From: Escherichia phage AV112
DNA length: 64,000 nucleotides
Sequence record: OR352942.1
Strand: one strand, 5' to 3'
In this document: positions 49-35,783 of the stretch, piece by piece
Layout: every line of letters begins with the position of its first letter
How positions within the stretch are numbered: position 1 is the first letter of the stretch
Program-made: the position numbers and the translations under genes
The notes under the pieces: model-generated
The model's database searches: none
What the model was told of the DNA's origin: nothing
Seen by the model: only the letters and a program-made list of their open reading frames with translations

Positions 49-450
49 TTATAGATTCGGTTTATATGATTTAAATGTTTCGAATTCGCCTTTATTCATA
101 AGAGCTTTGAATTCGTCAGGACGCATAGCTTTGTCGTCGATAATCCAATCATATACTGGTTTATGTGTTAGCAAATTATGGTACTTCAATCCAATGTTTG
201 CCAAGTTCTGAATCAGACTTGGGAGAATGTCAATTGCTATACGACCAGGACCGACTGACTTCATACCACGAGCAGTGTAAAGCGTTATGGTATGCCCTGC
301 ATCATACAGGGCATTAATGGCAGACACCATTTCGACGTCTGGTTTGAAGTTCACGTAATCACGATTGTTATTCCACTCTGTTATACAATCATCGACATCA
401 AAACAAAGATTAAGCATGTTTTTTACACGGGGCATTAGATTCGTTCCCAT
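49..450 (-). CDS. HAD-superfamily phosphatase (small KdsC-like sugar-phosphate phosphatase)
   Basis: Translation has the HAD motif I FDVDDCIT and a C-terminal IIDDK acidic motif; the likely true start is the internal Met of MLNLCFDVDD. It lies in an operon with the isomerase and the NTase/kinase. Confidence 0.6.
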   Translation of the reverse strand: MGTNLMPRVKNMLNLCFDVDDCITEWNNNRDYVNFKPDVEMVSAINALYDAGHTITLYTARGMKSVGPGRIAIDILPSLIQNLANIGLKYHNLLTHKPVYDWIIDDKAMRPDEFKALMNKGEFETFKSYKPNL

Positions 451-2120
451 TGATGAGTGATATCGCCACCGATTGGACGATAGGAAACACCAGTTTCTTT
501 ATCAGTTAGTACCCATTTACCAGGATTTTTTGTAATCAGAGTAGCCGTTACAGGTTCTGCTACGTCATAACTAATAGAGCCGTCCTGAAGTACACGGCCC
601 ATGTTACGTAATTGCTTAGTCAGAAGTTCCATACCTTTATAATATGCGGCTACCGCTTTAAGTGGATTATTCTTGAAATAACCACCTAATGCAATCCAGA
701 TAATTGCCACTGCCAAATGATGATACTCGTTAAACGAACTCATCTTTCCATATTTGTAAACTAATGGATTGATGTTAATAGTCACATTACAAGTTGTTTC
801 ATCAATAGTAAACTGTCCCCAGGTCGGATTAGCGTTGAATTCATCATACCCTGAAACAGCATAAAGCACTTTAGCTTCGTCATACAATTTTGGTCCGTAA
901 ATCTTGGTTTCGCCAAAATATCCACGAGGGTCGATAAACTTGACTTCGCCGTTATCAGTAATCATAGTATTACTGAAGTTCGGGTCACCATGAATAACAG
1001 AGTACTGTCCCTGAGAACGGTTATGATAACGAATAAGGTGTTCTAAAGCTTGTTTCAACATTGGCTTCAGACGCCCAATCTTAGTGTAGTTCACATGTGT
1101 GATTTTACCAAATGAATCAATCAGTGGTTGAATACTTTCACAACGATCAATAACTTTCGTATAGAATTCTTTAGTGAAATCACGACGAACAGTTTCAGGA
1201 CTTACAAAATAAGTGTCTGTGCTGAATTTCAGTGCGTCTAAAATTGCATCAACAATTTGTGGACGAGCAAGACTCGATTTGGATTTAATATATTCAAATG
1301 CTGGCTTACCTTTAATGCGTTCCATTTCAAAGTTATTTTCATTAACAGAAACTAACTGAGGAACTGAATCTGATTTCACTTTAAGATACCATGAAATCTC
1401 ATCTTTCTGAAGAGCTCGGCCCTGTTCGGTTAATGCGAATTTAGTTACAGTTTCTTCACCAATTTCAACGGCATTAAAACTACGATTAAGTTCACGAACT
1501 TCATGAGCTTTTTCAAGTTTAGGCATATCACCTAAATCAATTAGATTCATAAGCTCTGATTTATTGAATGCACTGCCGTAAAGGAATTCTACGAAATCAC
1601 GTCCTTTGCAGTATTCATGAATTTCCTCATCAGTAGAACCCATATAGAATTCCCAGTCTTTGAACTGATAAATTCCTACAACATTACCACCTGTTGAACC
1701 TACGTTAGTGATATTTTCACCGTCGAAATTATATCGACATTCGTCGCCCTTAACATAGATTGCGTTAACATTCCAAGACCACGAACCAAAATCAGGAATA
1801 ATATCACACCAGTTAACAATTACATTATGGCCGTCTAAATCTTTGTGCAATTTAGCAAGAGCATAAGCAGAACCATATGCTTCATCAACTGTACGAATAG
1901 TCACATTGAACCCTTCTTGCTCACAATAAGCTCGAACAGTTTCAGCAAATTTTGAATGAACTACTACAATAATTTCATCTGCGCCAAGGTCAGAATAAAT
2001 TGTATACAAATTGCTCAGAATAGTGTCTTGTTTATAGTTAACAAGCACCTTAGGAATATGATGCGTTATTGGATACAAACGAGTTGCCAGTCCAGCACCA
2101 AGAATAACAGCTTTTTTCAT
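435..2120 (-). CDS. Bifunctional sugar-1-phosphate nucleotidyltransferase (N-terminal) and APH-fold sugar kinase (C-terminal)
   Basis: N-terminus AVILGAGLATRLYPIT resembles the GxGTRL motif of RmlA/GlmU-type NTP transferases. The C-terminal half carries HGDPNFSN and FIDPRG, the catalytic loop and metal-binding motifs of the aminoglycoside/choline/anomeric-sugar kinase fold. Confidence 0.6.
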   Translation of the reverse strand: MKKAVILGAGLATRLYPITHHIPKVLVNYKQDTILSNLYTIYSDLGADEIIVVVHSKFAETVRAYCEQEGFNVTIRTVDEAYGSAYALAKLHKDLDGHNVIVNWCDIIPDFGSWSWNVNAIYVKGDECRYNFDGENITNVGSTGGNVVGIYQFKDWEFYMGSTDEEIHEYCKGRDFVEFLYGSAFNKSELMNLIDLGDMPKLEKAHEVRELNRSFNAVEIGEETVTKFALTEQGRALQKDEISWYLKVKSDSVPQLVSVNENNFEMERIKGKPAFEYIKSKSSLARPQIVDAILDALKFSTDTYFVSPETVRRDFTKEFYTKVIDRCESIQPLIDSFGKITHVNYTKIGRLKPMLKQALEHLIRYHNRSQGQYSVIHGDPNFSNTMITDNGEVKFIDPRGYFGETKIYGPKLYDEAKVLYAVSGYDEFNANPTWGQFTIDETTCNVTININPLVYKYGKMSSFNEYHHLAVAIIWIALGGYFKNNPLKAVAAYYKGMELLTKQLRNMGRVLQDGSISYDVAEPVTATLITKNPGKWVLTDKETGVSYRPIGGDITHQWERI

Positions 2121-2161
2121 GTTGTGGTCCTCATTGGTAAGTAGGAGTATTGTACACTATT

Positions 2162-2305
2162 CTAGTTAAAGCATTCATACTTTGCTTGTAGTCCAATCAT
2201 AATCCATCCGATTATAAGAGTCGGAATCATTACTGGAGCCGTTAAGCTCCAGTAGATAGTCATGACAAGCATCAATAGTAAAAGTCCTATTGTTATTGCT
2301 TTCAT
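2162..2305 (-). CDS. Small hydrophobic protein, 47 aa (below the ORF-track cut-off)
   Basis: Manual translation gives MKAITIGLLLLMLVMTIYWSLTAPVMIPTLIIGWIMIGLQAKYECFN. Its ATG overlaps the TGA of the isomerase gene (ATGA), with a GAGG box upstream. Confidence 0.3.
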   Translation of the reverse strand: MKAITIGLLLLMLVMTIYWSLTAPVMIPTLIIGWIMIGLQAKYECFN

Positions 2306-2937
2306 TGTTCGCCTCGTAACATGGCACCTAGTGCACCGCCAGGGTGGAACTTAAGGAAGTCATTAGAGGTAAATCCACGTTCAGACGAAAGGTTGATAGC
2401 AAACGTATCGATAAGCGCTAACAACAATGTAGTGGACATGGTCGGAGCCAGAGAATTCTCATCAACCTCTACTGCGATGCCTGTACAGAACGTATAATCA
2501 AAAAGAGCTTCGTATTCTTGTGGAATGTCCGGGTTACAATGCAACAGAATCTGTTTGACGTTCGGACGAATCATTTTAAGATGCTTAGCCACGCCTATCA
2601 TTTCTTCAGTTTTACCAGAACGACTAATATGAATCAACACATCATTAGGCGCAATGAATCCTGCATCACCGTGAGAATAATGTCCAGTGTTCAAGTACAT
2701 ACTCGGGATACCGAGTGAAGCAAATGTCTCAGAAGCTTTAGTTGCAATATTAGCATTCTTACCAACACCTGTAATAATTACTCGGCTTTCATAATTACTA
2801 AGTCCAGGACGTCGAAGAGTTTCTAGAATAGCATTATAACGAGCAGGGTTTTGACTAATTACTTTGGCCATAGCGGCCAAAGAAGAAGCTTGTTTTATGA
2901 TTGCGTCAATAGCGATAGTAATAGGAGTAGTTTTCAT
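2302..2937 (-). CDS. SIS-domain sugar-phosphate isomerase (arabinose-5-phosphate isomerase KdsD/GutQ-like)
   Basis: Contains the SIS signature HISRSGKTEE and the overall SIS-domain pattern; it sits directly downstream of gene 43, where T4 carries imm, 42 and beta-gt. Confidence 0.6.
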   Translation of the reverse strand: MKTTPITIAIDAIIKQASSLAAMAKVISQNPARYNAILETLRRPGLSNYESRVIITGVGKNANIATKASETFASLGIPSMYLNTGHYSHGDAGFIAPNDVLIHISRSGKTEEMIGVAKHLKMIRPNVKQILLHCNPDIPQEYEALFDYTFCTGIAVEVDENSLAPTMSTTLLLALIDTFAINLSSERGFTSNDFLKFHPGGALGAMLRGEQ

Positions 2938-9146: not shown

Positions 9147-10835
9147 TTATGAAACAGTCATTACCGTAAATCGTCCAACTTTGCTCATTTGAAGATGTTG
9201 TCCATAACGTTGAGGGTCATGGTCTCGATGAGAGATAATGAACACATTAGTATTTTGTAAACTTCCAAGAATGGTATCTATAGCCTTAACAGCCTCAGAA
9301 TCGACAGCACCATCAAAAACCTCATCAAGAATCAGAGTGTTGATTTTAACACCAGAGACCTTTTCAGCAATATCTCGCCATGTAAACAACAATGCGATAT
9401 CGATACGTGCCTTTTCACCTTGACTAAATGAAGCATAACTAAAATCTTCACGACCACGTGATTTTATAGATTCATTGAATTCTTCGTCAATAGAAAACAC
9501 GTAATCAGCTTCCATGATTTTAAGATAATAGTTAATCTGCTTGTTGAACAGAGGCACATATTTTTTAATGATAGCACCTTTAATACCAGAATCTTTTAAC
9601 ATATCTGTGATAATACCACGATGGTATTTTTCAAGAACGATATCAGATTTTGTTTTAATGATTTTATCAAGTTCTTTTTGAAGCAAAGCTATCTCATCAG
9701 CATGGTCGATAAATTCCGCCGAGGCTTGTTCTATTGCAGCTTTAACTTTCTTAGCTTTATCAATAGTGGCAATCATTGCTTGTTTCTTGGTACGAATATC
9801 AGATGCAAGGTCCTGTTTAGTCTTAACATTAGCTCTATATTCGTCCACTAGGACACTCAGATTATCTCTGTGGCATGTAAGTTGCTCGAATGAGTGATTA
9901 CATTCGTGAAGCTTATCGGTAATCTTAGAGACAATAGGATCACCCTGGTGCAACTGCGATGCACAAGTAGGACATGTACCACCATCATGATACATCTTAA
10001 TAACTTTGTTATATGAGTCGATTTTAGATTTAATCAAGAATGCTTCTTGTCCGATCTTGTTGAATGCCTCAGTAGGGTCTTCGTCAAGAACGATATTAAG
10101 TAGACGCTCATTAGCTTCTTCAATTTCTGCTTTTAATGAACGAGCTTCTTTGGCTAGGTCGTCATACATATTCTGTAGACGCGCTACATTATCACCAGAT
10201 AATTTCTTTTGTCGTTCGATATTCTCGTTATAAATCTTAATTTGTTGGATAACACCATCTTTCTTGGCATCGAGAACTTGTCCCTGGGAATTAAGTTCTC
10301 GAACTTGAGACTTATTGATTTTATCCATTTCAGCGAGTGTGCCGACTTCTAAAAGGTCTTCGACAAGTTTTCTGCGAGCAGGGGTGCTAAGAGCCATGAA
10401 AGGGGTATACCCTGCCGTCCCAAGCACAACGATTTGTTTAAAAGACGCGTATGACATTCCGATGCTGCGTTCAAATTCTTCTTGGAAGTCACGACTGCTG
10501 GCAGATTCATCAAGACGAACACCGTCAACGGAGATTTCGAAAATATTGGGCTTTTGGCCACGTTTAATGAAGTATTTTTTACCATCGAATTCCATCCAAA
10601 GCTCAACTAAGAGCTCTTTCTTGTTCGTGCTATTAATGATTTGCCCTTTCTTAACATCACGAAATGGTTTACCGAAAAGTCCGAAAGTAATGGCTTCTAA
10701 CATCGTAGATTTGCCACCACCATTTTTACCAGTGATTAATGTCTTTTGGACTTTATCTAATTGGATATCGATAAAATTTTGCCCAACAGACATTATATTT
10801 TTATAACGAACACGATTTAATTTAAATGTTTTCAC
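9147..10835 (-). CDS. 46: Recombination endonuclease subunit gp46 (SbcC/Rad50-like ATPase)
   Basis: 562 aa; N-terminal Walker A GKNGGGKST, a long central coiled coil and a C-terminal ABC signature region; position matches T4 gene 46. Confidence 0.92.
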   Translation of the reverse strand: MKTFKLNRVRYKNIMSVGQNFIDIQLDKVQKTLITGKNGGGKSTMLEAITFGLFGKPFRDVKKGQIINSTNKKELLVELWMEFDGKKYFIKRGQKPNIFEISVDGVRLDESASSRDFQEEFERSIGMSYASFKQIVVLGTAGYTPFMALSTPARRKLVEDLLEVGTLAEMDKINKSQVRELNSQGQVLDAKKDGVIQQIKIYNENIERQKKLSGDNVARLQNMYDDLAKEARSLKAEIEEANERLLNIVLDEDPTEAFNKIGQEAFLIKSKIDSYNKVIKMYHDGGTCPTCASQLHQGDPIVSKITDKLHECNHSFEQLTCHRDNLSVLVDEYRANVKTKQDLASDIRTKKQAMIATIDKAKKVKAAIEQASAEFIDHADEIALLQKELDKIIKTKSDIVLEKYHRGIITDMLKDSGIKGAIIKKYVPLFNKQINYYLKIMEADYVFSIDEEFNESIKSRGREDFSYASFSQGEKARIDIALLFTWRDIAEKVSGVKINTLILDEVFDGAVDSEAVKAIDTILGSLQNTNVFIISHRDHDPQRYGQHLQMSKVGRFTVMTVS

Positions 10836-11697
10836 TTAAATTTTTCCTCATGAATTCAGAAACTAAAGCCTGTAAAGAACTTTGTATAGGATATCCTAAA
10901 TTGACTAAATTTTTAGAAAAAGTCACATATTTAGGTTTGTTCATTTTAACCCATTCATCGTAAAGCATATCAAAATTTTCCCAATGATATCCTTTTCTTC
11001 TAGATTTCAAATGAGTGTCTCTAACTTTAGGATTTTTCCAACTGCGTGAAACTCCAGCCGATAATGATTCTCTATATTCGGCTGTTTTAGATATTTTACG
11101 ACAAGCATCCAAATGTTTTTGTTTATTAATAGGGTCACTAAACCACTTTTGGGTCATAATAGAGACGGTTTCTTTAAATTCCTTTGAACTTGTCATAATT
11201 CTGTGTTTCTTTAAATTTTCCGGATTTTTAAACCATGCTTTTAAAGCTTGACTAATCTTAATTCTATTATCCTGATTGGAATAGTATAATGTCATTTTTA
11301 TAGAATTAACTTTACAAACATTTTCGAATTCTAAAGAATACGCCTCGGCTATATTATTTAGTTCATGCGTTGTACAATTTAAATTAAATCGCCCGGTATA
11401 CATTCTTTGAAGCGCGTTAATCATCTTGTGGTTGCCAGTTTTTGCCAAAATGCTATGTGCAATAAAATGGTTATAATGACTTAAATGACACAAGTTCCAT
11501 TTACATGTTTTAAAATCTGGAAAAATAGATTTTGGTAGTATATGGTGAACCTGAGTCAGTCCTTTTACTTTATTAGTTGAATTAGTTTTTATAAAGTTTA
11601 AATACTCATCAAGTCCTTCCCACGAAGGGAAGGAGGTTTTAAGAATTTTATAAATTTGAGTTTCATAATCAGTCTTCGTCATTATACGCGTCCTCAA
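10822..11697 (-). CDS. HNH homing endonuclease (free-standing, Mob-like) with NUMOD-type DNA-binding repeats
   Basis: HNH core QVHHILPKS...CKWNLCHLSHYNHFIAH, followed by repeated WFKNPE / WFSDP / WKNPK helix motifs. It is inserted between 46 and 47 and overlaps the gp46 start by 14 nt. Confidence 0.8.
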   Translation of the reverse strand: MRTRIMTKTDYETQIYKILKTSFPSWEGLDEYLNFIKTNSTNKVKGLTQVHHILPKSIFPDFKTCKWNLCHLSHYNHFIAHSILAKTGNHKMINALQRMYTGRFNLNCTTHELNNIAEAYSLEFENVCKVNSIKMTLYYSNQDNRIKISQALKAWFKNPENLKKHRIMTSSKEFKETVSIMTQKWFSDPINKQKHLDACRKISKTAEYRESLSAGVSRSWKNPKVRDTHLKSRRKGYHWENFDMLYDEWVKMNKPKYVTFSKNLVNLGYPIQSSLQALVSEFMRKNLSENI

Positions 11698-11926
11698 TAC
11701 ACGCTTCAGCCATTTTAAGAATAGAGCCAGGAGTATCGTTGTCCATTATATTAAAGCTAAATTCAACAGCCCAGTCGGTGCAGACATGAACTGCTTTAAC
11801 TTCATTACCTTCAACGCGTAATGGCTCAATCCAATACTTGATAGTGTTCTCGAATCCATCATCATCTTTAACGTCCATTTCAACTTCAAGCCTGAGTCCA
11901 GCATTGTTAAATTCATCTAAAGTCAT
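11669..11926 (-). CDS. Hypothetical acidic protein
   Basis: 85 aa ORF between gene 47 and the HNH gene. Confidence 0.45.
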   Translation of the reverse strand: MTLDEFNNAGLRLEVEMDVKDDDGFENTIKYWIEPLRVEGNEVKAVHVCTDWAVEFSFNIMDNDTPGSILKMAEACIEDAYNDED

Positions 11927-12942
11927 TGTGTTGCCTCAATATAAAGTTCGTTGGAATATTTGACCAGCGCTTCTCTGTCTTCGTCTGAGATATCTGGAAT
12001 CGCGTCAATATATTCTTTAATGATATCTTGAAGAGATTTAATCTCGATTTCCTGGTCGTCATCAGATTCAACACTGTTATCAACTTTAGAAACCATACGA
12101 AGAGAGTGAACTACTTTTTCAAGTTCAGATTCAAACTTAGTCAACTCTGAATCAATTTCTGATACTATAACACGTACGGCTAGATTAGTATAATCAGAAT
12201 AATTGATTTTGCCTTTAAACGGATAAGTGATTCGTCGATGCCATGTTGTTTCGTTAGGAATAAATTCCATACGTTCAACATCAGTGTCAAATACCCAAAA
12301 TCCGCGCGGGTCGTTCTCATCACCTGCAGTAAGGGTCCATGGTGTCCCAATATATTTGACGTTAGCAGCTTCAGAGATTGTGTGGAAGTGGCCGGACCAG
12401 ACTTGTTTATAGGTCTTTAAGAAATCAGGTTCAAGCCCATGAGACTTCATTCCTTTATAGAAATAAAAACCATTCAGTTCCCAGTGCCCAACACAATACG
12501 CTGCGGAAGAAGTCTTGATGTGCTCTAAGATTTCACCTGTATTTTCTTCGCACATCCATGGAACGATATCAATCAGACATCCGTCAAAATCTACAGTAGT
12601 TGGATGCTCGTAAATAGTAAAGTTTTCAAATTGAGTTAACAATTCAGAAACAGTGTTAGGTGTTATTGTATTCTTAAACGCCATGTCATGGTTTCCTATC
12701 GTGACATGAACGTGAATGCCTGCTTTAGAAATCATATCAACGATTTCACGATTGAATTCCATTGTACGATGTGTTATTGCTTTACGGACGTCAAACCAAT
12801 CACCGTACTGAATCCAAGTTTTAATCCCATGTTTCTTAGAGTATTCAATTGCTTGACGAATACCATCACGTTGAATATCTTGAACCCATGGGTCGTCTTG
12901 TTTGACTCCGATATGGAAGTCGCCTAAGTGCAAAATTTTCAT
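11923..12942 (-). CDS. 47: Recombination endonuclease subunit gp47 (SbcD/Mre11-like)
   Basis: 339 aa; MKILHLGDFH...GNHD phosphoesterase motifs; collinear with recalled T4 gp47. Confidence 0.94.
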   Translation of the reverse strand: MKILHLGDFHIGVKQDDPWVQDIQRDGIRQAIEYSKKHGIKTWIQYGDWFDVRKAITHRTMEFNREIVDMISKAGIHVHVTIGNHDMAFKNTITPNTVSELLTQFENFTIYEHPTTVDFDGCLIDIVPWMCEENTGEILEHIKTSSAAYCVGHWELNGFYFYKGMKSHGLEPDFLKTYKQVWSGHFHTISEAANVKYIGTPWTLTAGDENDPRGFWVFDTDVERMEFIPNETTWHRRITYPFKGKINYSDYTNLAVRVIVSEIDSELTKFESELEKVVHSLRMVSKVDNSVESDDDQEIEIKSLQDIIKEYIDAIPDISDEDREALVKYSNELYIEATQ

Positions 12943-12986
12943 ATTATTTCCTCATTAGTTAATTCATTCTATCATCCGCTTATAAA

Positions 12987-13013
12987 GCAAAAAAAGGAAC
13001 TCCGAAGAGTTCC
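12987..13013 (-). terminator. Rho-independent terminator (minus strand)
   Basis: Plus strand reads aaaaaaa-GGAACTC-cgaa-GAGTTCC: a 7-bp stem with a 4-nt loop, followed by a U-run on the minus-strand transcript. Confidence 0.6.
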
Positions 13014-13186
13014 TATCCACATAGTACACCATACAGAGGCTCATTTGAACTTTTAAATCGAATGGGCTTGTATGTAATAGTTCCTTCGGCTTTAGCTTTA
13101 TCATAAGACTCTTTAAAACGCCTCATTCTTTCTGCTTTGCCTTTACGGATTTTATCGAAATTTTCAGAGGTCAGGTCGTTCGTCAT
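13013..13186 (-). CDS. Small basic protein, 57 aa (below the ORF-track cut-off)
   Basis: Manual translation gives MTNDLTSENFDKIRKGKAERMRRFKESYDKAKAEGTITYKPIRFKSSNEPLYGVLCG; GAGGTG sits 7 nt upstream of the ATG, and the terminator follows directly. Confidence 0.35.
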   Translation of the reverse strand: MTNDLTSENFDKIRKGKAERMRRFKESYDKAKAEGTITYKPIRFKSSNEPLYGVLCG

Positions 13187-13406
13187 GCATAATCACCTCT
13201 CAGAAAATACCTAAATCGATTTCTCTCATCGTTTCCACCATTTCTTAACTTGAAATGAGTCAACCCACACGAGTTGTTTTGGGTCGGCCCTTACAACAGG
13301 TGGACAAATTTCTGTAATAGAACTGTCGTGATATTCCTTTTCAGAGATTTTAACACAAAGAGGACCTCCCAATTTAAGGGTGAACCCTGCGTTCAGCTTA
13401 AGACGT

Positions 13407-13730
13407 TTAAACTTTGTTTGAACTAGCGCCATTAATGATGTCCTCAATAGCCTGACGAGTAGTAACCCACTGGATTTTAATTAACTTGTCATTATATGGT
13501 TGTCGTAGAATATCCCGAGATTTCTTAATAGCATATTCGTAAGCTTCGAAGTTGTTTTGAATTGCTGCTTCTTGAGCATGAGCATAAAGACGGTTTAGTT
13601 CAAAACGATTCTTTTTAAGAATCTTTTCGGATTTTTTACGTGCTTCAGCTTCATTTTTCTTTTGGATTTCTTGTAGCATTTTAGCTACTGCATCTTCTGC
13701 TTCTTTATTTTCAATAATCTCGGTAGTCAT
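13407..13730 (-). CDS. Hypothetical protein
   Basis: 107 aa ORF in the interval where T4 carries alpha-gt and 47.1; no glycosyltransferase-sized ORF is present here. Confidence 0.5.
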   Translation of the reverse strand: MTTEIIENKEAEDAVAKMLQEIQKKNEAEARKKSEKILKKNRFELNRLYAHAQEAAIQNNFEAYEYAIKKSRDILRQPYNDKLIKIQWVTTRQAIEDIINGASSNKV

Positions 13731-13731
13731 A

Positions 13732-14025
13732 TTATCTCATTAAATTAAAATAAAAACGTCCATCCTCTTCAATACGGAACTCATACTCAACCGGAGTCCC
13801 ATTTATCGAAAATGACACGTCATGTGGGTTCAAAGGGTCGATGTCAAAATTAATTTTAAATTCACGACCCAACAGTTTTACCAAATAAGGGATTGCTTCG
13901 TCAAAAGGTTCTTCTAAGTAGTTAGAGATGTCAATTGTCATCCTCATATAAAAAATCCAAACTAGGCGAATCGCTAACAACTTCCTTCTTTTCAGCCCCA
14001 GGAGCTTTATAAGCGGATTCTTCAT
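13732..14025 (-). CDS. Hypothetical protein (start uncertain)
   Basis: 97 aa ORF whose 5' part overlaps the 3' end of gene 55; internal Met codons at 13945-13947 and 13939-13941 are alternative starts. Confidence 0.4.
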
Positions 14026-14488
14026 AATGCGTCATTTTATCGTAGATGTCTTGAATAAACGTTTCATCTACCAACGCTACCATATCATCGTCATGACTGT
14101 CGTAGACGTTATGAACGAAGTAACTATATTTCTTTGCAACTTCCTTACGTTCTTTTTTGATACGTTGGACAAAAGCATTAAAACAAGCTCGAGTTATGTA
14201 TGCATGTGGGTTATTGTACTTAGTTTCGTCGAAATTATGAAGTCCCTTAATAGAGGCTTCAATCCCATCTGCAATCATCTCCTGCTTCCAAGACTGGGTA
14301 TATCCTGAAAAGTTGAAACGTTTGGACAGGCCTTCGGCGATAAGCATAATTGCTAAACCGATGGTATCATTCTGACGAATAATTTTGTTTGGGTCTTTAT
14401 TATTTAAGAGCTCCTTTTTCCACTCGATTATAGCGGCGAGAAGCTCTTTATTATTCACATAGTTATTTTTAGGTTTTTGTTCAGTCAT
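13931..14488 (-). CDS. 55: Late-transcription sigma factor gp55
   Basis: 185 aa; near-identical to recalled T4 gp55 over NYVNNKELL...[25 protein letters not shown]. Confidence 0.94.
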
Positions 14489-14643
14489 AAGTACCTCTTA
14501 GCTCAATTCATAGGTCTATTATATCATAATATTTAGAGACCTATCTTAAAGCACGAGATACTACCAAAGATACGTAACTTTCATAAAGTTGTCGACTTAA
14601 AATTCACCAAACTTTTATTCGGTTATAGTAATTCGAGATAGTT

Positions 14644-14871
14644 TCATTCTATTTCCTTTGCTGCAAATAAGGCAGCATCCAACGAATCAAATTGGTCAAC
14701 GAAATCAATATTCAATGCATCGTCATCCGTAGCATATAACCACCATTGTTTGAATTCGTATTCTAGAATAAATCCAGGACCTTCAATCTGAGGAAGACCT
14801 AGACTATTTGTACTAACTTCATAACCAGCTAGACGCAGGTCATTAATCAAAGTTTCTGTTAATACGTTCAT
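14644..14871 (-). CDS. Hypothetical protein
   Basis: 75 aa ORF upstream of gene 55 (T4 55.x region). Confidence 0.45.
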   Translation of the reverse strand: MNVLTETLINDLRLAGYEVSTNSLGLPQIEGPGFILEYEFKQWWLYATDDDALNIDFVDQFDSLDAALFAAKEIE

Positions 14872-15200
14872 TTTACCGCCTTAACAATTTTCAGGTCAAC
14901 GAATTTTTTCTTACGTTGATTTTTCATACGACGGATAGTCTTTTCAGAGATTTCATGTTTCTGATAAGCTTTAGATTCAACACCAAATGCAGCAACGTCA
15001 AATTCAGAAAGAATATATTGTACTAGAATTTCACGAATAGAATTACGTCCAATTTTCTGGTCGTGTTTTTGCATGATTTCATAAAGACGGAATTCCCACG
15101 CGTCAAGAACTTGAGGAGTAACAATATTGCCGGATTCAAGAAGAGCAACAACTTTATCGAAAGCGAAAGAATTAACTACGTTTTTGATTTTAGTAGACAT
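14868..15200 (-). CDS. Hypothetical protein
   Basis: Start placed at MSTKIKNVV, preceded by GAGGAAAATAAT-ATG; the longer ORF-track start would place the ATG inside the -10 element of the promoter repeat. Confidence 0.5.
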   Translation of the reverse strand: MSTKIKNVVNSFAFDKVVALLESGNIVTPQVLDAWEFRLYEIMQKHDQKIGRNSIREILVQYILSEFDVAAFGVESKAYQKHEISEKTIRRMKNQRKKKFVDLKIVKAVK

Positions 15201-17262: not shown

Positions 17263-17733
17263 TTAATCATGTTTCCACACCCCGTCGGTATTTGTCCAAA
17301 GTCGCTGATTATCTGATCCTCGCCACAGTTTTTTGGTCGGAAGATTTTTCTCATACTTCCCATCAATAATAACATCAACATATTTAAGCATTTCTAGTTG
17401 TTTAATATCTTCAAACTTATATCCTGTCCACAACCAAATGCTTTTATTGGGATAAAGTTTTTTTACTGTTTGAACAATGCAATGAACAACATCTTGGTTA
17501 TCAGGATAGAGAGGGTCTCCTCCAGTTATAGTTAATCCTTCTATATAATCATTATTCAAACATTCAATTAATTGTTCCAGCGTTTCACCGGTGAATGGGA
17601 TACCATTTCTAGCGTTCCATGTTGATTTATTATAACACCCCTCGCATTTATGCAAACAACCTGTAACGAAAAGAACGACCCTGCAACCGGGGCCATTCAC
17701 AAAATCGCAAGGATAAAATCTATCATAATTCAT
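17263..17733 (-). CDS. nrdG: Anaerobic ribonucleotide reductase activating protein NrdG (radical SAM)
   Basis: 156 aa with the CxxxCxxC cluster CLHKCEGC; immediately downstream of nrdD. Confidence 0.92.
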   Translation of the reverse strand: MNYDRFYPCDFVNGPGCRVVLFVTGCLHKCEGCYNKSTWNARNGIPFTGETLEQLIECLNNDYIEGLTITGGDPLYPDNQDVVHCIVQTVKKLYPNKSIWLWTGYKFEDIKQLEMLKYVDVIIDGKYEKNLPTKKLWRGSDNQRLWTNTDGVWKHD

Positions 17734-19547
17734 TGGTGTTTAACCCTATGCATGATTTCTTTATTTTTGCCGAGATTAAATCCGCGTTCGTTCGGATTTC
17801 CAAGATAACCGCATGTTCTTCTTATTGTGTTCATCTTTTTAGGATCAGTTTCTCCGCAAACTGAACAAACAAATCCGGTTTCAGTAGGAGTCATTTCATG
17901 AGTACTTCCACATGTAAAACATTTATCTACTGGCATATTAACACCAAAATAATCTAAATGTTGTGCAGCATAATCCCATACAGCCTCAAGACCTTTTAGG
18001 TTATTTTTCATATCAGGAAGTTCAACATAAGAAATGTGACCACCAGTCGCAATGAAATGATATGGCGCTTCACGAGAAATCTTTTCAAACGGAGTAATAT
18101 TTTCTTCTACTGAAACATGGAAACTATTAGTGTACCAGCCTTTATCAGTAACATCTTTTACACTTCCATATTTTTCTGTATCAAGTTTACAGAAGCGATA
18201 ACAAAGGTTTTCAGCAGGAGTAGAATACAAGCTAAAAGCAAAACCGGTTCTTTCAGTCCACTGCTTAAGACGAGCATTCATTTTAGTTAAAATTTCTTGC
18301 CCAATATCACGTCCGGCAAGAATATTCAATTCGTGAATACCAATGTATCCTAAAGACACTGAACTTCTACCGTTTTTAAATAACTCAATTATATCGTCAT
18401 CAGGTTTAAGACGAACCCCGAATGCACCTTCTTGGTAAAGAATAGGAGCAACAGTAGCTTTAACTCCTTTTAAGGAACTAATTCTACACATCAAAGCTTC
18501 AAAACACAAATCCATTCGCTCATTGAACAATTCGATAAATTTCTGTTCATTGAACTGTGTTCCAATATAAGAATCTAACGCAATGCGAGGAAGATTCAGT
18601 GTTACAACACCGAGATTATTACGTCCATCAAGAATTTCATTACCAGTCGAATCTTTCCATACGCTCAAGAAACTACGGCAACCCATTGGAGAAACAGGAA
18701 TAGACGAACCAGTGATAGCTTTATTGTTCTTAACTGAAATAATATCAGGATACATTCTTTTGCTTGCGCATTCTAAAGCAAGCTGTTTAATATCATAGTT
18801 CGGGTCGTCTTTATAAAGATTAACACCCTCTTCAACGAACATAACAAGTTTAGGGAAAATAGGAGTTATTCCATCACGACCAAGGCCTTTAATACGATTT
18901 TTCAGAATTGCTTTCTGAATCATTCGTTCAGTCCAGTCAGTTCCAGTACCAAATGTAATTGTTACAAAAGGCGTTTGTCCGTTTGAACTAAAGAGAGTAT
19001 TTACTTCGTATTCATACGCTTGGAATGCATCATATACGTCTTTTTCTGTTTTAGATTGAGCATAATTCAACGCATCAGCGATTTGCCATTTTTCTGCATC
19101 TTCAATATGTTTTGCATAGGTGCGTTTAACATAAGGAGAAAGAACTTTATCGACATTCGCAAATGTAGTTCCACCATACTGATGCGAAGCAACCTGTGCG
19201 GTAATTTGTGCCATAATTGCAGTAGCAACACCAATCGATTTAGGCGTTTCAATTTGAGCATTGCCTAATTTAAATCCATTCTCAAGCATTCCTTTTAAAT
19301 CTACTAAACAGCAATTAGTAAAAGGCAATGATATACTGTAATCTAAATCATGAAAATGAATTAATCCAACATTATGTGCATTTACAATATGACTTGGAAG
19401 AATACGACAAGCGATATGTTTAGAAACAATACCGGCCATTAAATCTCTTTTTGTTGGAAAGACACGAGAATCTTTGTTGGCGTTTTCGGTATTTAATTCT
19501 TTATCTTTATTTGAAATAAAATTTAAAACATCTTTCTCTAAAGACAT
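17730..19547 (-). CDS. nrdD: Anaerobic ribonucleoside-triphosphate reductase NrdD (glycyl radical enzyme)
   Basis: 605 aa with the C-terminal glycyl-radical motif RRTCGYLGNP and a Zn-ribbon CxxC pair; one uninterrupted ORF, so no intron. Confidence 0.95.
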   Translation of the reverse strand: MSLEKDVLNFISNKDKELNTENANKDSRVFPTKRDLMAGIVSKHIACRILPSHIVNAHNVGLIHFHDLDYSISLPFTNCCLVDLKGMLENGFKLGNAQIETPKSIGVATAIMAQITAQVASHQYGGTTFANVDKVLSPYVKRTYAKHIEDAEKWQIADALNYAQSKTEKDVYDAFQAYEYEVNTLFSSNGQTPFVTITFGTGTDWTERMIQKAILKNRIKGLGRDGITPIFPKLVMFVEEGVNLYKDDPNYDIKQLALECASKRMYPDIISVKNNKAITGSSIPVSPMGCRSFLSVWKDSTGNEILDGRNNLGVVTLNLPRIALDSYIGTQFNEQKFIELFNERMDLCFEALMCRISSLKGVKATVAPILYQEGAFGVRLKPDDDIIELFKNGRSSVSLGYIGIHELNILAGRDIGQEILTKMNARLKQWTERTGFAFSLYSTPAENLCYRFCKLDTEKYGSVKDVTDKGWYTNSFHVSVEENITPFEKISREAPYHFIATGGHISYVELPDMKNNLKGLEAVWDYAAQHLDYFGVNMPVDKCFTCGSTHEMTPTETGFVCSVCGETDPKKMNTIRRTCGYLGNPNERGFNLGKNKEIMHRVKHQ

Positions 19548-20359
19548 AATTCTAATTTATCCTTTTGAAATTCTTCGTCTAAATATGGGTTCCAACCCAT
19601 TTTAAACCTTTTGATGAAATTATCAATTCTAAATTTCGGTAAGTTTAAATCCGCAAAAATAGATGATTTACTTTTAAAATCTGGACCTAAATAATCATAT
19701 AAAATTTCTGCGTATTTTAACCATAATATACAAGTACCAGATTTAATTGCGTTCGGAGTTTTCCAAGGTTTTACACCATACATCGGATTTCCACTTCCTT
19801 TATGCCTGATAGAAGATGAAATTCCAATTTTAATTTTAGCTTCCTTTGTATGCGAAAATCCACGATGCGGATTTTCTTTCCAGTATTTTTTAGAAGCTTC
19901 TGATATTTTCTTTCTGGCTAAATTAGTATGATGCTTTCCATAAAATCCATGATTTTTGCCTTTATTACGATTTCTTTTAATCATGGTTATTGATTGCTTT
20001 TCTCTAGTTTCTTTAGAAGGAGAAATACCATATGTCGTAAATTTGCCATCAGCATATGCTAAATTAAAATACTCTTTATTCCATACATCTTTTTCTATAT
20101 TCTTTTGAAATTCAGCTTCAATGCTAGTTATTTGTTCATCTCCGACTAATTGAAAATATAATATTTCAACTTTCGGCGTTTCTTTCAATAAGGCTTTTTG
20201 AAATTCGGAAGATGACGAAGACGAATAATAAAATTTACCATTTTTATCAATAATATTCGTTCCATCAAAAGTGCAATTGGTTTTACTTCCAATGTAATAA
20301 TATGGTGGGGTTTTAGCATTAATTCTATTAATAAATGATAGTTTATATACTACATTCAT
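19538..20359 (-). CDS. GIY-YIG homing endonuclease (free-standing, Seg-like) with NUMOD3 repeats
   Basis: N-terminal VVYKLSFINRINAKTPPYYYIGSKTN (GIY-YIG core); C-terminal repeated KNHGFYGKHHT / ENPHRGFSHTKEAK / GSGNPMYGVKPW helices. It sits between 49 and nrdD and overlaps both. Confidence 0.75.
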   Translation of the reverse strand: MNVVYKLSFINRINAKTPPYYYIGSKTNCTFDGTNIIDKNGKFYYSSSSSSEFQKALLKETPKVEILYFQLVGDEQITSIEAEFQKNIEKDVWNKEYFNLAYADGKFTTYGISPSKETREKQSITMIKRNRNKGKNHGFYGKHHTNLARKKISEASKKYWKENPHRGFSHTKEAKIKIGISSSIRHKGSGNPMYGVKPWKTPNAIKSGTCILWLKYAEILYDYLGPDFKSKSSIFADLNLPKFRIDNFIKRFKMGWNPYLDEEFQKDKLELCL

Positions 20360-26967: not shown

Positions 26968-27969
26968 TTATTTCAGTAAAGTAACTTCAGAGATTTCCTC
27001 CCAACCATCTTTATCAGTTGAAATAAAATCTGCTACATAAAGAGCCGTACGTAATGATACATTGCGAAGACGAGATACATTAGCCTTCATCCAGGACAAT
27101 GCTTTATACGTTTCTGCATCTGTCAGACCACGTTTCTGCATCATGTCAGTAGATAATATTACATCTTCAACTCGAACCATAATCTCTTCATTAGAGTGTA
27201 CTCCAAGGTCGAGATACACTGAACGAGATACTAAAGCTTGAAGGTGTGGGGCAAGTTTCGAACCGCGTTCTAACTCTTTATCGATATCAACGTTTGTAAT
27301 GAAAACGATAGTACCTTCAAACTCAAATTCTTTATCAATACCCTTATCATCGAGATAAGATGACGCAGTGCTCCAACAAACTTTGCGTTTATCTCCAGTA
27401 TCTAATGCTGCTTTAAGAAGGTTCAAGATGTCCATATCTGAGAATACGTCAACGTCGTCGATTAAGAGAACGCTGTCTGCATCACGGTTGAGCCAAAGTT
27501 GTTCGTAAAGGCCAATACCGGAGATTTTACCATTAATGCTTTTGTATTTGATGAAACCATTATCATTAGCGTTATTAAGTGCTTTATCCAGAGAATACGT
27601 CTTACCAATACCGGCTGCACCTGAAATAATGAGTGAACGAATTTTGCCATCGATAATGCCATTCGTCATCATGTTCATTACTTTAAAGCGTTTGTTGATA
27701 CGAGTTTTCATATCTTCAGTGCTTTCAACAACTGCAACTGGTGACGTCTCAACTCCTTCCATTACGATGTCTGATTTGAAGACCCATACTCCACGTTCAG
27801 ACCCATCAATCATAACGAAAATTTTACCATCACCTAAGTGGGAACATTCAGGATTAAGCTTTGCTGGGAACCATGTCTTTGTGGCAACATAAGAACCAGA
27901 GATTTCGTTATTACGATAAATACCTTTTTTGATTTGAACGTTGAACATTTTATTCTCCAATTTACTCAT
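26968..27969 (-). CDS. P-loop NTPase (AAA-like ATPase)
   Basis: Walker A IISGAAGIGKT and Walker B VLLIDDVD. Confidence 0.6.
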   Translation of the reverse strand: MSKLENKMFNVQIKKGIYRNNEISGSYVATKTWFPAKLNPECSHLGDGKIFVMIDGSERGVWVFKSDIVMEGVETSPVAVVESTEDMKTRINKRFKVMNMMTNGIIDGKIRSLIISGAAGIGKTYSLDKALNNANDNGFIKYKSINGKISGIGLYEQLWLNRDADSVLLIDDVDVFSDMDILNLLKAALDTGDKRKVCWSTASSYLDDKGIDKEFEFEGTIVFITNVDIDKELERGSKLAPHLQALVSRSVYLDLGVHSNEEIMVRVEDVILSTDMMQKRGLTDAETYKALSWMKANVSRLRNVSLRTALYVADFISTDKDGWEEISEVTLLK

Positions 27970-28657: not shown

Positions 28658-29647
28658 TTATTTATAGTAAGAATTATGATTTTCGAGATAGACTTGTTCA
28701 AGGAAGTCATCCCAGAAACTCATATCTACTTTTTGTTGCATACCGTTCTTGGCAGCTTGTTCTGATGCATGTTCAACTTGGTCAACGATATCTTCTAGGA
28801 ATTCTTGTACAGTTTTAAACGTATGTTTACCAAGCTTAACATCGAGAATAAATGGAGCATCCTGAAGTGGGTAAACCAGGTCGCCGGTTTTATAAATTTC
28901 TAATAGTTGAAGTCCACCACGACATGCATGACTCAATGCTTTCCAGTCAATACCTTCGTTAGCTTCTGCCTTACGAGCACGTTCACCATAGTTCTCTTCC
29001 AGTTTAACCAGGATGGCATTGAACTCTTTATTGGTTAACGTGTCTTGGAATTTACGGTCTAACAGATTATAGAATGTTTGCTTACCTGTTTTCTCGTTTT
29101 CAGTTTCAACCCACGAAGCAAATTCACCTACAGGCAGAACATTCTTCATATGTGATAAACGAATTACTGCACCATTATCAAAGTATTGTCCCCATTCATT
29201 AGAACGTTTAAGGGCTTGACGAAGAACAGCCAGTCGAGAACCCTTGACACCGTATTTAGAAGCTTGTTTACGGACATACCCTAAATAAGATTTCATGTTA
29301 GTGGTATAGAAACGAGACCTGTTATCTTGAATATACTTCCATACATCAGGCAAATCGGATTTAACTACTAAACTTGGTGGAGTGTGAAGCATATCTAATG
29401 CGACGGTTTCGCCATCTGCAGCTAGTTTAAAGAAATATTTGAGACTATACAACTCATGGTCCACGTCGTCTTTTGTGTTCTTAGAAGATGTGTTATTTGT
29501 GTTCTTGCTCATATGTTCTTTAACGTTACCGGTCAAGATATCACGAGCATGAGGGACATAAATTTCTTTAAAATCGACGTCAGATTCAGGAGTAGACGTT
29601 CCATAAAGGTGGCTACCAAAGTAGCCTTTCATAATTGTTTTCATCAT
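28658..29647 (-). CDS. Nucleotidyltransferase-fold protein (Pol-beta superfamily)
   Basis: N-terminal GSHLYGTSTPESDVDF matches the GS-x(10)-DxD active-site signature of minimal NTases and of the OAS/CD-NTase families. Confidence 0.5.
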   Translation of the reverse strand: MMKTIMKGYFGSHLYGTSTPESDVDFKEIYVPHARDILTGNVKEHMSKNTNNTSSKNTKDDVDHELYSLKYFFKLAADGETVALDMLHTPPSLVVKSDLPDVWKYIQDNRSRFYTTNMKSYLGYVRKQASKYGVKGSRLAVLRQALKRSNEWGQYFDNGAVIRLSHMKNVLPVGEFASWVETENEKTGKQTFYNLLDRKFQDTLTNKEFNAILVKLEENYGERARKAEANEGIDWKALSHACRGGLQLLEIYKTGDLVYPLQDAPFILDVKLGKHTFKTVQEFLEDIVDQVEHASEQAAKNGMQQKVDMSFWDDFLEQVYLENHNSYYK

Positions 29648-34566: not shown

Positions 34567-35025
34567 CTAGATTTTAATCACTGCTTTAGAAGCTTTTCCT
34601 GGTAGTCGTTTACTGTTAATAATAGCCATTCTGCATTGAAGAGTCTTCATTTTGAACGCTGGATTTTCGCGACAAACTGTAAGTCCTAACCAAAGATTTC
34701 CGTCAGTTATTTCTAAACGGCCTGGGCGATATTCGACACCTTCGACAAAATCTTCATCAACATCTGGACGTGCCGGCATTGATAAAAATTCTGTAACTTC
34801 TTTAACATGATTTTTTACTTTACGAAATAATTCAAAAACGTAGTTCTCATCTATTTCTCTCTGGATGGCACGATCTAAGAGATGTTGAGAATACTTGATA
34901 TGAAAGCCTGGTAGTCCAAGAGACTTTGCAGCATCTTTTATACCGGCATTTATTTTGCGGAACTCCGTTTCAAAGATTCGACGGAGTTTATTACGGCGGA
35001 TAAAAACGTCAGAATTGATAGTCAT
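34567..35025 (-). CDS. regB: Endoribonuclease RegB
   Basis: 152 aa; MTINSDVFIRRNKLRR...YSQHLLDRAIQREIDE...RMAIINSKRLPGKASKAVIK is near-identical to recalled T4 RegB. Confidence 0.88.
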   Translation of the reverse strand: MTINSDVFIRRNKLRRIFETEFRKINAGIKDAAKSLGLPGFHIKYSQHLLDRAIQREIDENYVFELFRKVKNHVKEVTEFLSMPARPDVDEDFVEGVEYRPGRLEITDGNLWLGLTVCRENPAFKMKTLQCRMAIINSKRLPGKASKAVIKI

Positions 35026-35054
35026 TTTTTATTTCTCCTCTAGTTGACAGGTCT

Positions 35055-35083
35055 ATAGTAACACATCTAGAGGAGAAGTAAAC
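35055..35083 (-). promoter_or_regulatory. Sigma70-type early promoter upstream of regB
   Basis: Minus strand reads GTTTAC, a 17-nt spacer, then TACTAT. Confidence 0.5.
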
Positions 35084-35087
35084 TACT

Positions 35088-35303
35088 TTATTGATAAAAT
35101 GGAGTTAAAGCCCAAGATTCTTTAGATACCATATCGGCGAAATGCCTCATCTCTTCGATTTGGCGACGACGCTGGTCAGCATAGTCTTCTTCGCCTTCTT
35201 CCTTACAATCTTCAAGGTCTTCTTCAAGATACTTTAAGTATTCACTACAAATTTTGTTGATCTTTTCTTGAAAGTCCAATAACCCTGTAATAGTAGAAGC
35301 CAT
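35088..35303 (-). CDS. Small acidic protein (vs.3 position)
   Basis: 71 aa ORF. Confidence 0.4.
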   Translation of the reverse strand: MASTITGLLDFQEKINKICSEYLKYLEEDLEDCKEEGEEDYADQRRRQIEEMRHFADMVSKESWALTPFYQ

Positions 35304-35569
35304 TAGTATTTTTCCTCAGGTCGAAATACTGCACGACACGCCCACATGCTGGCTTCTTTTAGATGTTGCTTAGCATACTTAAGAGCCTGCACTGCATCCA
35401 TATCTTCTTTGGTTTGTTGCTCTGATTCATTTTCTTTCAAGATATATGCTTCTTCAATCAGAGCATCAAACATCAATCCAAGACGGACTTCTGCATCTTT
35501 AATAGCGTTCACTTTACTGATTTTATCATCGGTATGCGGCTTGTAGCCTTTGATGTCTTCAATCGACAT
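35303..35569 (-). CDS. Small protein in the T4 vs.4 position (candidate Acb2-like cyclic-nucleotide sponge)
   Basis: 88 aa from MSIEDIKGYKPH, preceded by GAGGAAATTCCTT-ATG; identity is by position only. Confidence 0.35.
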   Translation of the reverse strand: MSIEDIKGYKPHTDDKISKVNAIKDAEVRLGLMFDALIEEAYILKENESEQQTKEDMDAVQALKYAKQHLKEASMWACRAVFRPEEKY

Positions 35570-35783
35570 AAGGAATTTCCTCATCGGTGGCAAGGTCATA
35601 TTCGACCAATTGGATAGGCTCATTAATACCGTATCCGCGTACAGTGATATCGGTTGACGGATATTTTCCAGTAATATCACCAATTCTAAATGATTCAATG
35701 AATGATTGCTCGCCTGAGCAACTAAACCAGGCGGCAAAACATTTTAAAACATCTTCAGACCCTTCTATAATCAATTTAGCCAT
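35559..35783 (-). CDS. Hypothetical protein (vs.5 position)
   Basis: 74 aa ORF. Confidence 0.4.
   Translation of the reverse strand: MAKLIIEGSEDVLKCFAAWFSCSGEQSFIESFRIGDITGKYPSTDITVRGYGINEPIQLVEYDLATDEEIPYVD

Follow-up and report, generated by a model that had tools for sequence, protein, structure and literature searches.

Absence of alpha-glucosyltransferase between genes 47 and 55 of an RB69-like Mosigvirus predicted to carry arabinosylated 5-hydroxycytosine

Introduction

When the alpha-glucosyltransferase gene (a-gt) is missing from its usual place between genes 47 and 55 of a T4-like phage, has it moved elsewhere in the genome, was it lost or never acquired, and what modification does the phage DNA carry? 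The T4 enzyme, a GT-B glycosyltransferase (Pfam PF11440), glucosylates 5-hydroxymethylcytosine (5hmC) at its hydroxymethyl group. In T4 the gene order is 47, 47.1, a-gt, mobB, a-gt.2, a-gt.3, a-gt.4, a-gt.5, 55, and in phage RB14 it is the same without mobB. A first-pass annotation of the 64,000-nucleotide stretch of DNA analyzed here (the window) reported that the a-gt of about 400 aa found at this position in T4 was missing, and tied its loss to a replacement module next to gene 43. The size given for the T4 gene agrees with the T4 record (400 aa).

The absence of a-gt from RB69-type phages is already known. RB69 was reported to have no homolog of a-gt, b-gt or ba-gt (Thomas et al., 2018, PMC6024577), and its lack of homologs of both glucosyltransferases of T4, alpha and beta, was recently restated (Lee et al., 2026, PMC13326640). 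The a-gt-less gene order also stands in the RB69 RefSeq record, and the distribution of these modification genes over the Tevenvirinae has been tabulated (Nikulin & Zimin, 2021, PMC8056088). Below we identify the source of the window, correct the gene list of the 47-55 interval, and compare the locus with T4, RB69 and selected other Tevenvirinae.

Materials and Methods

The complete genome of Escherichia phage AV113 (OR352943.1; 167,942 bp) was rebuilt from the window and four additional pieces of the record, whose overlaps were identical. The window corresponds to record positions 96000-159999, with window position 1 at 96000. Glucosyltransferase queries were compared with all six frames of this genome by tblastn. 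An a-gt HMM was constructed from four a-gt sequences and run with filters off against the 688 stop-to-stop ORFs of the AV113 genome. A neighbor-joining tree of 13 taxa with 300 bootstraps was calculated from gp47 and gp55, and so reflects two flanking genes only. The T4 records NC_000866 and AF158101 carry no promoter or terminator annotation, and the promoter table of PMC2988021 was used.

Results and Discussion

Source genome and gene content of the 47-55 interval

Megablast of window positions 11500-15000 returned a full-length match of 100% identity to phage AV113, and numerous RB69-like phages (F2, PhAPEC2, APCEc01 and HY126 among them) matched at 97-98%. AV113 is classified in the genus Mosigvirus (RB69-like), within the Tevenvirinae subfamily of the Straboviridae. 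Its gp47 and gp55 are 100% and 99.5% identical to those of RB69, respectively, and it differs from RB69 in carrying an HNH-type homing endonuclease ORF at the site of RB69 46.1.

Table 1. Features of the 47-55 interval and of the modification genes of phage AV113. Coordinates are window positions, except where a position in the AV113 record is given.
Feature	Position	Strand	Evidence
HAD-type phosphatase of the arabinose pathway, RB69 gp51 / AfhF-like, 128 aa	49..435	-	97.7% identical to RB69p051; role from PMC13326640
Bifunctional sugar-1-phosphate nucleotidyltransferase / kinase, RB69 gp52:53, AfhE-like, 561 aa	435..2120	-	99.5-99.7% identical to RB69p052 and RB69p053; role from PMC13326640
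Arabinose-5-phosphate isomerase, RB69 gp55 homolog, 211 aa	2302..2937	-	99.1% identical to RB69p055; Pfam SIS
Gene 43, DNA polymerase, 903 aa	2978..5689	-	100% identical to RB69 gp43
Gene 47, SbcD-like recombination endonuclease subunit, 339 aa	11923..12942	-	76% identical to T4 gp47 over 339 aa; phrog_100, E = 1.6e-135
Predicted MotA-dependent middle promoter for gene 47	12966..12989	-	MotA box TGCTTTA, 11-nt spacer, -10 element TAGAAT
Intrinsic terminator (predicted)	12988..13014	-	8-bp stem AGGAACTC/GAGTTCCT, UUCG tetraloop, then T7; overlaps a-gt.2 stop codon
a-gt.2 ortholog, 57 aa, DUF5486	13013..13186	-	75% identical to T4 a-gt.2; Pfam DUF5486 E = 4.5e-28; phrog_2140
a-gt.3 ortholog, 68 aa from ATG	13226..13432	-	72% identical to T4 a-gt.3 over 65 aa, E = 7e-30; phrog_1648, E = 3e-34
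a-gt.4 ortholog, 107 aa, DUF2654	13407..13730	-	58% identical to T4 a-gt.4; Pfam DUF2654 E = 1e-27
a-gt.5 ortholog, 71 aa, DUF5491	13732..13947	-	47% identical to T4 a-gt.5 over full length; Pfam DUF5491
Gene 55, late sigma factor, 185 aa	13931..14488	-	91% identical to T4 gp55; phrog_234, E = 3.7e-68
Putative GT-B arabinosyltransferase, RB69 gp3 / ORF003c homolog	AV113 71049-72149		99% identical
Putative GT-B arabinosyltransferase, RB69 gp46:47 homolog, 299 aa	AV113 92938-93837		99% identical
5-Hydroxy-dCMP synthase, ThyA homolog, RB69 gp48	AV113 93837-94553, just outside the window		99.2% identical over 238 aa; Pfam Thymidylat_synt

Every ORF of interest in the 47-55 region lies on the minus strand. 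Genes 47 and 55, which the first-pass annotation had placed correctly, enclose four conserved genes, a-gt.2, a-gt.3, a-gt.4 and a-gt.5 (Table 1), and no large (~400-aa) ORF lies between them, as that annotation had stated. Its list of small ORFs (57, 107 and 97 aa) requires revision. The 57- and 107-aa ORFs correspond to a-gt.2 and a-gt.4, but the 68-aa a-gt.3 had been missed and the 97-aa ORF is too long. The a-gt.3 ortholog is also without annotation in the AV113 GenBank record, although the gene is named a-gt.3 in RB69. The 97-aa ORF (13732..14025) was rejected as a gene, with the T4 a-gt.5 alignment, PHROG and Pfam DUF5491 all indicating an a-gt.5 frame over-extended into gene 55. The T4 a-gt.5 alignment begins at 13947 and the PHROG match at residue 27 of the ORF; from that start, a-gt.5 overlaps gene 55 by 17 nt, as it does in T4. 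The GenBank start for the gene is 13941 (69 aa). The gene list of the interval is corrected accordingly, and includes the a-gt.3 missing from the AV113 record.

The small ORFs were ruled out as a replacement for a-gt because all four, a-gt.2 to a-gt.5, are present in T4 as well. A match of a-gt.2 to phrog_17354, named "head maturation protease", looks like an annotation error, as do the structural-protein names given to the a-gt.x ORFs in the T2 record. A literature search found no papers on a-gt.2 to a-gt.5, and a PDB sequence search found no relative of a-gt.4 with a solved structure.

The RB69 interval has the same order as that of AV113 (47, a-gt.2, a-gt.3, a-gt.4, a-gt.5, 55), with a nearly identical junction. 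T4 shares both flanking genes and orthologs of all four a-gt.x genes, at 47-91% identity, but additionally carries 47.1, a-gt and the homing endonuclease gene mobB, a total of about 2.2 kb. At this site AV113 has a spacer of only 70 bp, from the a-gt.2 stop codon to the gene 47 start, with no remnant of a-gt left in it. That the gap reflects a deletion peculiar to the AV113 isolate, or an artefact of its assembly, is practically inconceivable, as the 988-bp 47-55 interval is found as one aligned piece, with at least 95% nucleotide identity, in about 147 independent phage genomes, RB69 included.

Absence of T4-type glucosyltransferases from the genome

Searches of the whole 167,942-bp AV113 genome by tblastn detected no homolog of T4 a-gt (best E = 1.4), of T4 b-gt (best E = 3.7) or of the T2-type ba-gt, for which the RB14 sequence served as query (best E = 0.82). 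Of the two divergent a-gt queries, that from Klebsiella phage RCIP0032 gave a best E of 0.51 and that from Erwinia phage Cronus gave zero matches. The best ORF in the a-gt HMM search of the 688 AV113 ORFs reached E = 0.13 (6.5 bits) and has weak AAA/HTH Pfam signals but no glycosyltransferase signal. Likewise, no Pfam glycosyltransferase family was matched by 10 other window ORFs of 223-333 aa. There was thus no alpha-glucosyltransferase homolog elsewhere in the genome to make up for the one missing from the T4 position (best tblastn E = 0.5, best HMM E = 0.13). By these measures of sequence similarity, the absence of a-gt, b-gt and ba-gt is genome-wide in AV113.

It is extremely unlikely that a-gt is still present but has moved or diverged past easy recognition. 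Distant GT-B enzymes do exist in this genome: RB69 ORF003c was described as a very remote GT-B relative, with about 10% identity (PMC6024577), and AV113 encodes a homolog 99% identical to it. These remote GT-B proteins are, however, assigned as arabinosyltransferases (putative for RB69) and not as glucosyltransferases (PMC13326640), and the sugar reported in RB69 DNA is arabinose, not glucose (Thomas et al., 2018, PMC6024577). The tblastn and HMM searches described above, which covered six frames of the full genome, also argue against a hidden a-gt.

The arabinosyl-5-hydroxycytosine gene set

The modified base of RB69 was identified as mono- and poly-arabinosylated 5-hydroxycytosine (5hoC), not hydroxymethylcytosine (Lee et al., 2026, PMC13326640). 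In that work, RB69 gp48 makes 5-hydroxy-dCMP, the UDP-arabinose supply is proposed to proceed via gp55, gp52:53 and gp51, and arabinosyltransferase roles are putatively given to gp46:47 and gp3. The AV113 DNA from uvsX to gene 43 codes for a nucleotide kinase, a 299-aa protein, a ThyA homolog, a U32-family protein, a 128-aa protein, a 561-aa NTP-transferase/kinase fusion and a SIS-domain isomerase. All counterparts of the RB69 modification proteins p045-p055 were found in AV113, with 97-99.7% protein identity; members of the cluster are the kinase p045, arabinosyltransferase p046:47, 5-hydroxy-dCMP synthase p048, U32-like p050, HAD protein p051, p052:53 and the arabinose-5-phosphate isomerase (API) p055. 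The link that the first-pass annotation made to the module next to gene 43 holds: window positions 49..2937, with the adjoining DNA upstream, encode the RB69 arabinosylation cluster. The polarity implied by calling the absence of a-gt a "loss" is only moderately supported, as discussed below.

Pfam domains lend support to members of the cluster. The isomerase gene adjoins gene 43 and is annotated as D-arabinose-5-phosphate isomerase. The 561-aa ORF has a Pfam NTP_transferase domain at its N-terminus and weak matches to kinase families at its C-terminus, and the ThyA homolog shares only 25% identity with T4 gp42. Neither the gp46:47 nor the gp3 homolog of AV113 has a Pfam domain, and their GT-B assignment rests on the RB69 literature. 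Both p046:47 and p052:53 are single intact ORFs in AV113 but are split in the RB69 record, a split that has been attributed to sequencing error (PMC13326640).

By analogy with RB69, this pathway would operate in place of T4 gp42 (5hm-dCMP synthase) and the glucosyltransferases. The thymidylate synthase homolog would produce 5-hydroxy-dCMP; arabinose-5-phosphate isomerase, the bifunctional kinase/uridylyltransferase and the HAD phosphatase would convert ribulose-5-phosphate to UDP-arabinose; and the two GT-B arabinosyltransferases would act on 5hoC in DNA. An alpha-glucosyltransferase would have no 5hmC acceptor in AV113, because this phage carries the RB69 5hoC gene set instead. From gene content we infer that AV113 DNA carries the same modification as RB69. 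The locus is of the ordinary RB69/Mosigvirus type at the sequence level, in that every search for a T4-type glucosyltransferase was negative and every comparison with the RB69 arabinosyl-5hoC gene set was positive. We conclude that the window comes from an RB69-like Mosigvirus in which 47.1, a-gt and mobB are missing relative to T4, and in which the arabinosyl-5hoC pathway very probably leaves no need for alpha-glucosyltransferase.

In practical terms, the absence of a-gt marks an RB69-type (Mosigvirus) virus, in which arabinosylated 5-hydroxycytosine would be expected rather than glucosyl-5hmC. The expected base in turn predicts how sensitive the phage is to type IV restriction, DNA glycosylases and CRISPR, as well as genetic isolation from T4-type phages. 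These points have all been published for RB69, and the present observation has little importance beyond correct annotation.

Terminator and middle promoter at the a-gt.2/47 junction

The terminator reported in the interval by the first-pass annotation was recovered by a terminator scan as a minus-strand hairpin at 13014..12995, followed by T7, with a fold of -13.2 kcal/mol and z = -3.65. Directly downstream is a predicted middle promoter, in which the MotA box (in context, TTTTGCTTTA) is followed by 11 nt and TAGAAT at 12989..12966 of the minus strand. The predicted start site is near 12959, and is followed by the Shine-Dalgarno sequence GAGG and the gene 47 ATG at 12942. Read on the minus strand, the junction runs from the a-gt.2 stop codon through GGAACTC-TTCG-GAGTTCC and TTTTTT-TGCTTTA-TAAGCGGATGA-TAGAAT-GAATTAACTAAT-GAGG-AAATAAT-ATG into gene 47. 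The T4 middle-promoter consensus (PMC2988021) combines a good sigma-70 -10 element with a MotA box, (a/t)(a/t)(a/t)TGCTTtA, that lies 12 +/- 1 bp upstream of it, and TGCTTTA with 11 nt and TAGAAT fits this consensus. Across the window, the middle-promoter pattern has 8 matches versus 1.16 expected, six of them on the minus strand. AV113 also has an annotated MotA-like regulator and an annotated anti-sigma factor.

T4, like AV113, has a UUCG-loop hairpin after a-gt.2 and a MotA-type middle promoter. The two phages differ in copy number, as the hairpin, GCTTTA and -10 module occurs twice in T4 (after a-gt.2 and after a-gt) and once in AV113. The T4 copies coincide with PmobB (start 38682) and P47 (start 36576), two experimentally mapped middle promoters (PMC2988021). 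Related hairpin/promoter modules lie 5' of gene 47 (or 47.1) in phages VR25, CHI14, RCIP0032, NM4.3 and EnC15, and a module precedes a-gt in RCIP0032 and Cronus as well. The promoter element TGCTTTA is kept in RB69 and VR25 and is altered (TGCTAT or TGCTTT) in CHI14, RCIP0032, NM4.3 and EnC15.

This arrangement suggests that transcripts passing through gene 55 and the a-gt.x genes would end at the UUCG hairpin just after a-gt.2, and that a MotA/AsiA-dependent promoter directly downstream would restart transcription into genes 47-46. On the strength of these motifs, the a-gt.2/47 junction of AV113 is likely a terminate-then-restart site.

Loss or absence from the start

The a-gt gene is missing from the 47-55 slot in representatives of seven other genera: IME08 (Dhakavirus), VR25 (Gaprivervirus), CHI14 (Winklervirus), STML-198 (Gelderlandvirus), NM4.3 (Moonvirus), EnC15 (Karamvirus) and RB49 (Krischvirus). 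This brings the sampled genera without a-gt in the slot to eight, including Mosigvirus. A tblastn search of a phage collection with T4 a-gt returned 657 records, among which Tequatrovirus matched at 90-100% identity, Erwinia phage Cronus at 56.5%, and a few others more distantly. Another 143 records fall in the 60-80% identity band, where the sampled rows all belong to Klebsiella or Raoultella phages, with identities of about 66%. In both RCIP0032 and Cronus, a-gt occupies exactly the slot that it has in T4, which places the gene at the same site in three distant Tevenvirinae lineages.

Divergence of a-gt among these lineages runs parallel to that of the neighboring gp47. Pairwise a-gt identities are 67% for T4 and RCIP0032, 57% for T4 and Cronus, and 59% for RCIP0032 and Cronus, and the corresponding gp47 identities are 70.5%, 66% and 69%. 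In the gp47+gp55 tree, 296 of 300 bootstraps join Tequatrovirus to Mosigvirus as its sister and 200 of 300 place Cronus near the base, with weak support for the deep nodes (176-200 of 300). The a-gt-positive taxa were grouped together in none of the 300 bootstraps. Because the slot is shared, a-gt and gp47 diverge in parallel, and the a-gt-positive taxa are scattered in the tree, we favor, with moderate support from these comparisons, the interpretation that a-gt is an old resident gene that was probably lost several times, including in Mosigvirus. The weak deep nodes, the mosaic nature of T4-like phages, the lack of any a-gt remnant in the 70-bp spacer, and the closeness of the AV113 junction to that of the a-gt-less VR25 are observations on the other side.

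A possible though rather unlikely alternative is that Mosigvirus never had a-gt, the a-gt-less junction being ancestral and a cassette of promoter, gene and terminator having entered laterally, by insertion into the terminator/promoter module upstream of gene 47, once in Tequatrovirus and independently in the Klebsiella and Erwinia phages. Absence of a-gt from the slot in most sampled genera is consistent with this history. The AV113 junction is nearest to that of Gaprivervirus VR25 (40 of 50 nt), with 47.1 missing in both phages, which would also fit an ancestral a-gt-less state and lateral gain of the cassette in Tequatrovirus. The duplicated hairpin/promoter modules around the cassette in T4, RCIP0032 and Cronus are, moreover, the trace expected of integration resembling that of PeSLs, the promoter/stem-loop cassettes of T4-type phages (Arbiol et al., 2010, PMC2839356; Comeau et al., 2014, PMC4122927). 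The same history would, however, require homologous genes to have been inserted three times at precisely one site, and it sits poorly with the parallel a-gt and gp47 divergence, with the sister relationship of Tequatrovirus to Mosigvirus, and with the near-basal position of the a-gt-positive Cronus in the tree.

Whether the gene was lost, as we favor, or gained, recombination between the repeated terminator/middle-promoter modules is a plausible route by analogy with PeSLs. The likeness lies in short repeated terminator and promoter motifs around a variable gene, and is an analogy only; the described PeSLs carry early promoters and lie in hyperplastic regions, whereas the promoter at the AV113 junction is of the MotA middle type. 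In 50-nt alignments, the AV113 junction has 27-35 identities with three Tequatrovirus module copies, which is equivocal. A recognizable chimeric junction derived from the T4 PmobB or P47 module was dropped as a candidate on account of these alignments and the shortness of the junction. As a more tentative suggestion still, the UUCG-hairpin/MotA-middle-promoter modules around a-gt in T4, the Klebsiella phage and Cronus might be portable sites for recombination, comparable to PeSLs but with middle promoters, with the single Mosigvirus module perhaps being the scar of a precise a-gt excision that followed a switch from 5hmC to 5hoC.

The gene 47 region

Homing endonucleases seem to favour the slot immediately upstream of gene 47, an apparent insertion hot spot filled by mobB in T4, by an HNH-AP2 endonuclease gene in RB49 and by an unannotated stretch in IME08. 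On reading the IME08 DNA by eye, this stretch seems to encode an endonuclease-like C-terminus that has been absorbed into an over-long gp47 annotation.

Coordinates of features in the window and in related phage records (L002, T4; L005 and L006, pieces of the AV113 record; L010, IME08; L018, RB49).
Feature	Location	Strand	Match or annotation
HNH/MobD-like homing-endonuclease ORF, 291 aa	window 10822..11697	(-)	phrog_655, E = 7e-32
a-gt.3 ortholog	window 13226..13432	(-)	unannotated in AV113 GenBank record; annotated in RB69
273-aa ORF	window 19538..20359	(-)	NUMOD3 motif
333-aa ORF	window 26968..27969	(-)	weak AAA/STAND-NTPase and HTH signals, all under Pfam cut-offs
329-aa ORF	window 28658..29647	(-)	RlaP, E = 7.7e-13
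AV113 "gene 42"	record 93837..94553 (L005 33837..34553), outside window		99.2% identical to RB69 gp48
DAHP-synthase-family protein, 330 aa	record 34730..35722 (L006), outside window		Pfam DAHP_synth_1, E = 2e-74
mobB, upstream of gene 47	T4 L002 5886..6680		
HNH-AP2 endonuclease, upstream of gene 47	RB49 L018 2381..2935		
Unannotated 563-bp stretch, upstream of gene 47	IME08 L010 1976..2538		

Between genes 46 and 46.2, AV113 carries the HNH/MobD-like ORF; this place is taken by a small gene, 46.1 (DUF5487), in RB69 and T4. The ORF is polymorphic across the Mosigviruses: F2, SQ17 and pEK20 carry it, and in PhAPEC2, APCEc01, HY126 and many others homology is lost to the left of window position ~11661. 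The NUMOD3 ORF, directly downstream of an nrdD-like gene (17730..19547) and overlapping its end, is likely a further homing endonuclease gene.

In T4, the experimentally mapped middle promoter P47 has a -10 element (TATAAT) that overlaps the annotated ATG of 47.1 (L002 4583..4589). Transcripts from P47 therefore begin within 47.1, and this ORF is translatable from read-through RNA only. Close homologs of 47.1 are present in CHI14 (Winklervirus) and NM4.3 (Moonvirus); none was found in Mosigvirus, VR25 (Gaprivervirus), Klebsiella phage RCIP0032 or Erwinia phage Cronus.

AV113 annotation and additional ORFs

While nearly identical to RB69 gp48, a 5-hydroxy-dCMP synthase confirmed by experiment (PMC13326640), the product of AV113 "gene 42" shares only 25% identity with T4 gp42, and its GenBank label "dCMP hydroxymethylase" is probably wrong. 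Elsewhere in AV113, a dCMP deaminase gene adjoins that of the DAHP-synthase-family protein, which could conceivably be tied to the arabinose metabolism of this phage. KDO8P synthase, a user of arabinose-5-phosphate, belongs to the same Pfam family. The AV113 GenBank record also leaves a 220-bp stretch without annotation at the a-gt.3 ortholog.

Two additional ORFs of the window, of 333 and 329 aa, are listed in the table. RlaP, matched by the latter, is a Pol-beta-type nucleotidyltransferase of an RNA repair pathway.
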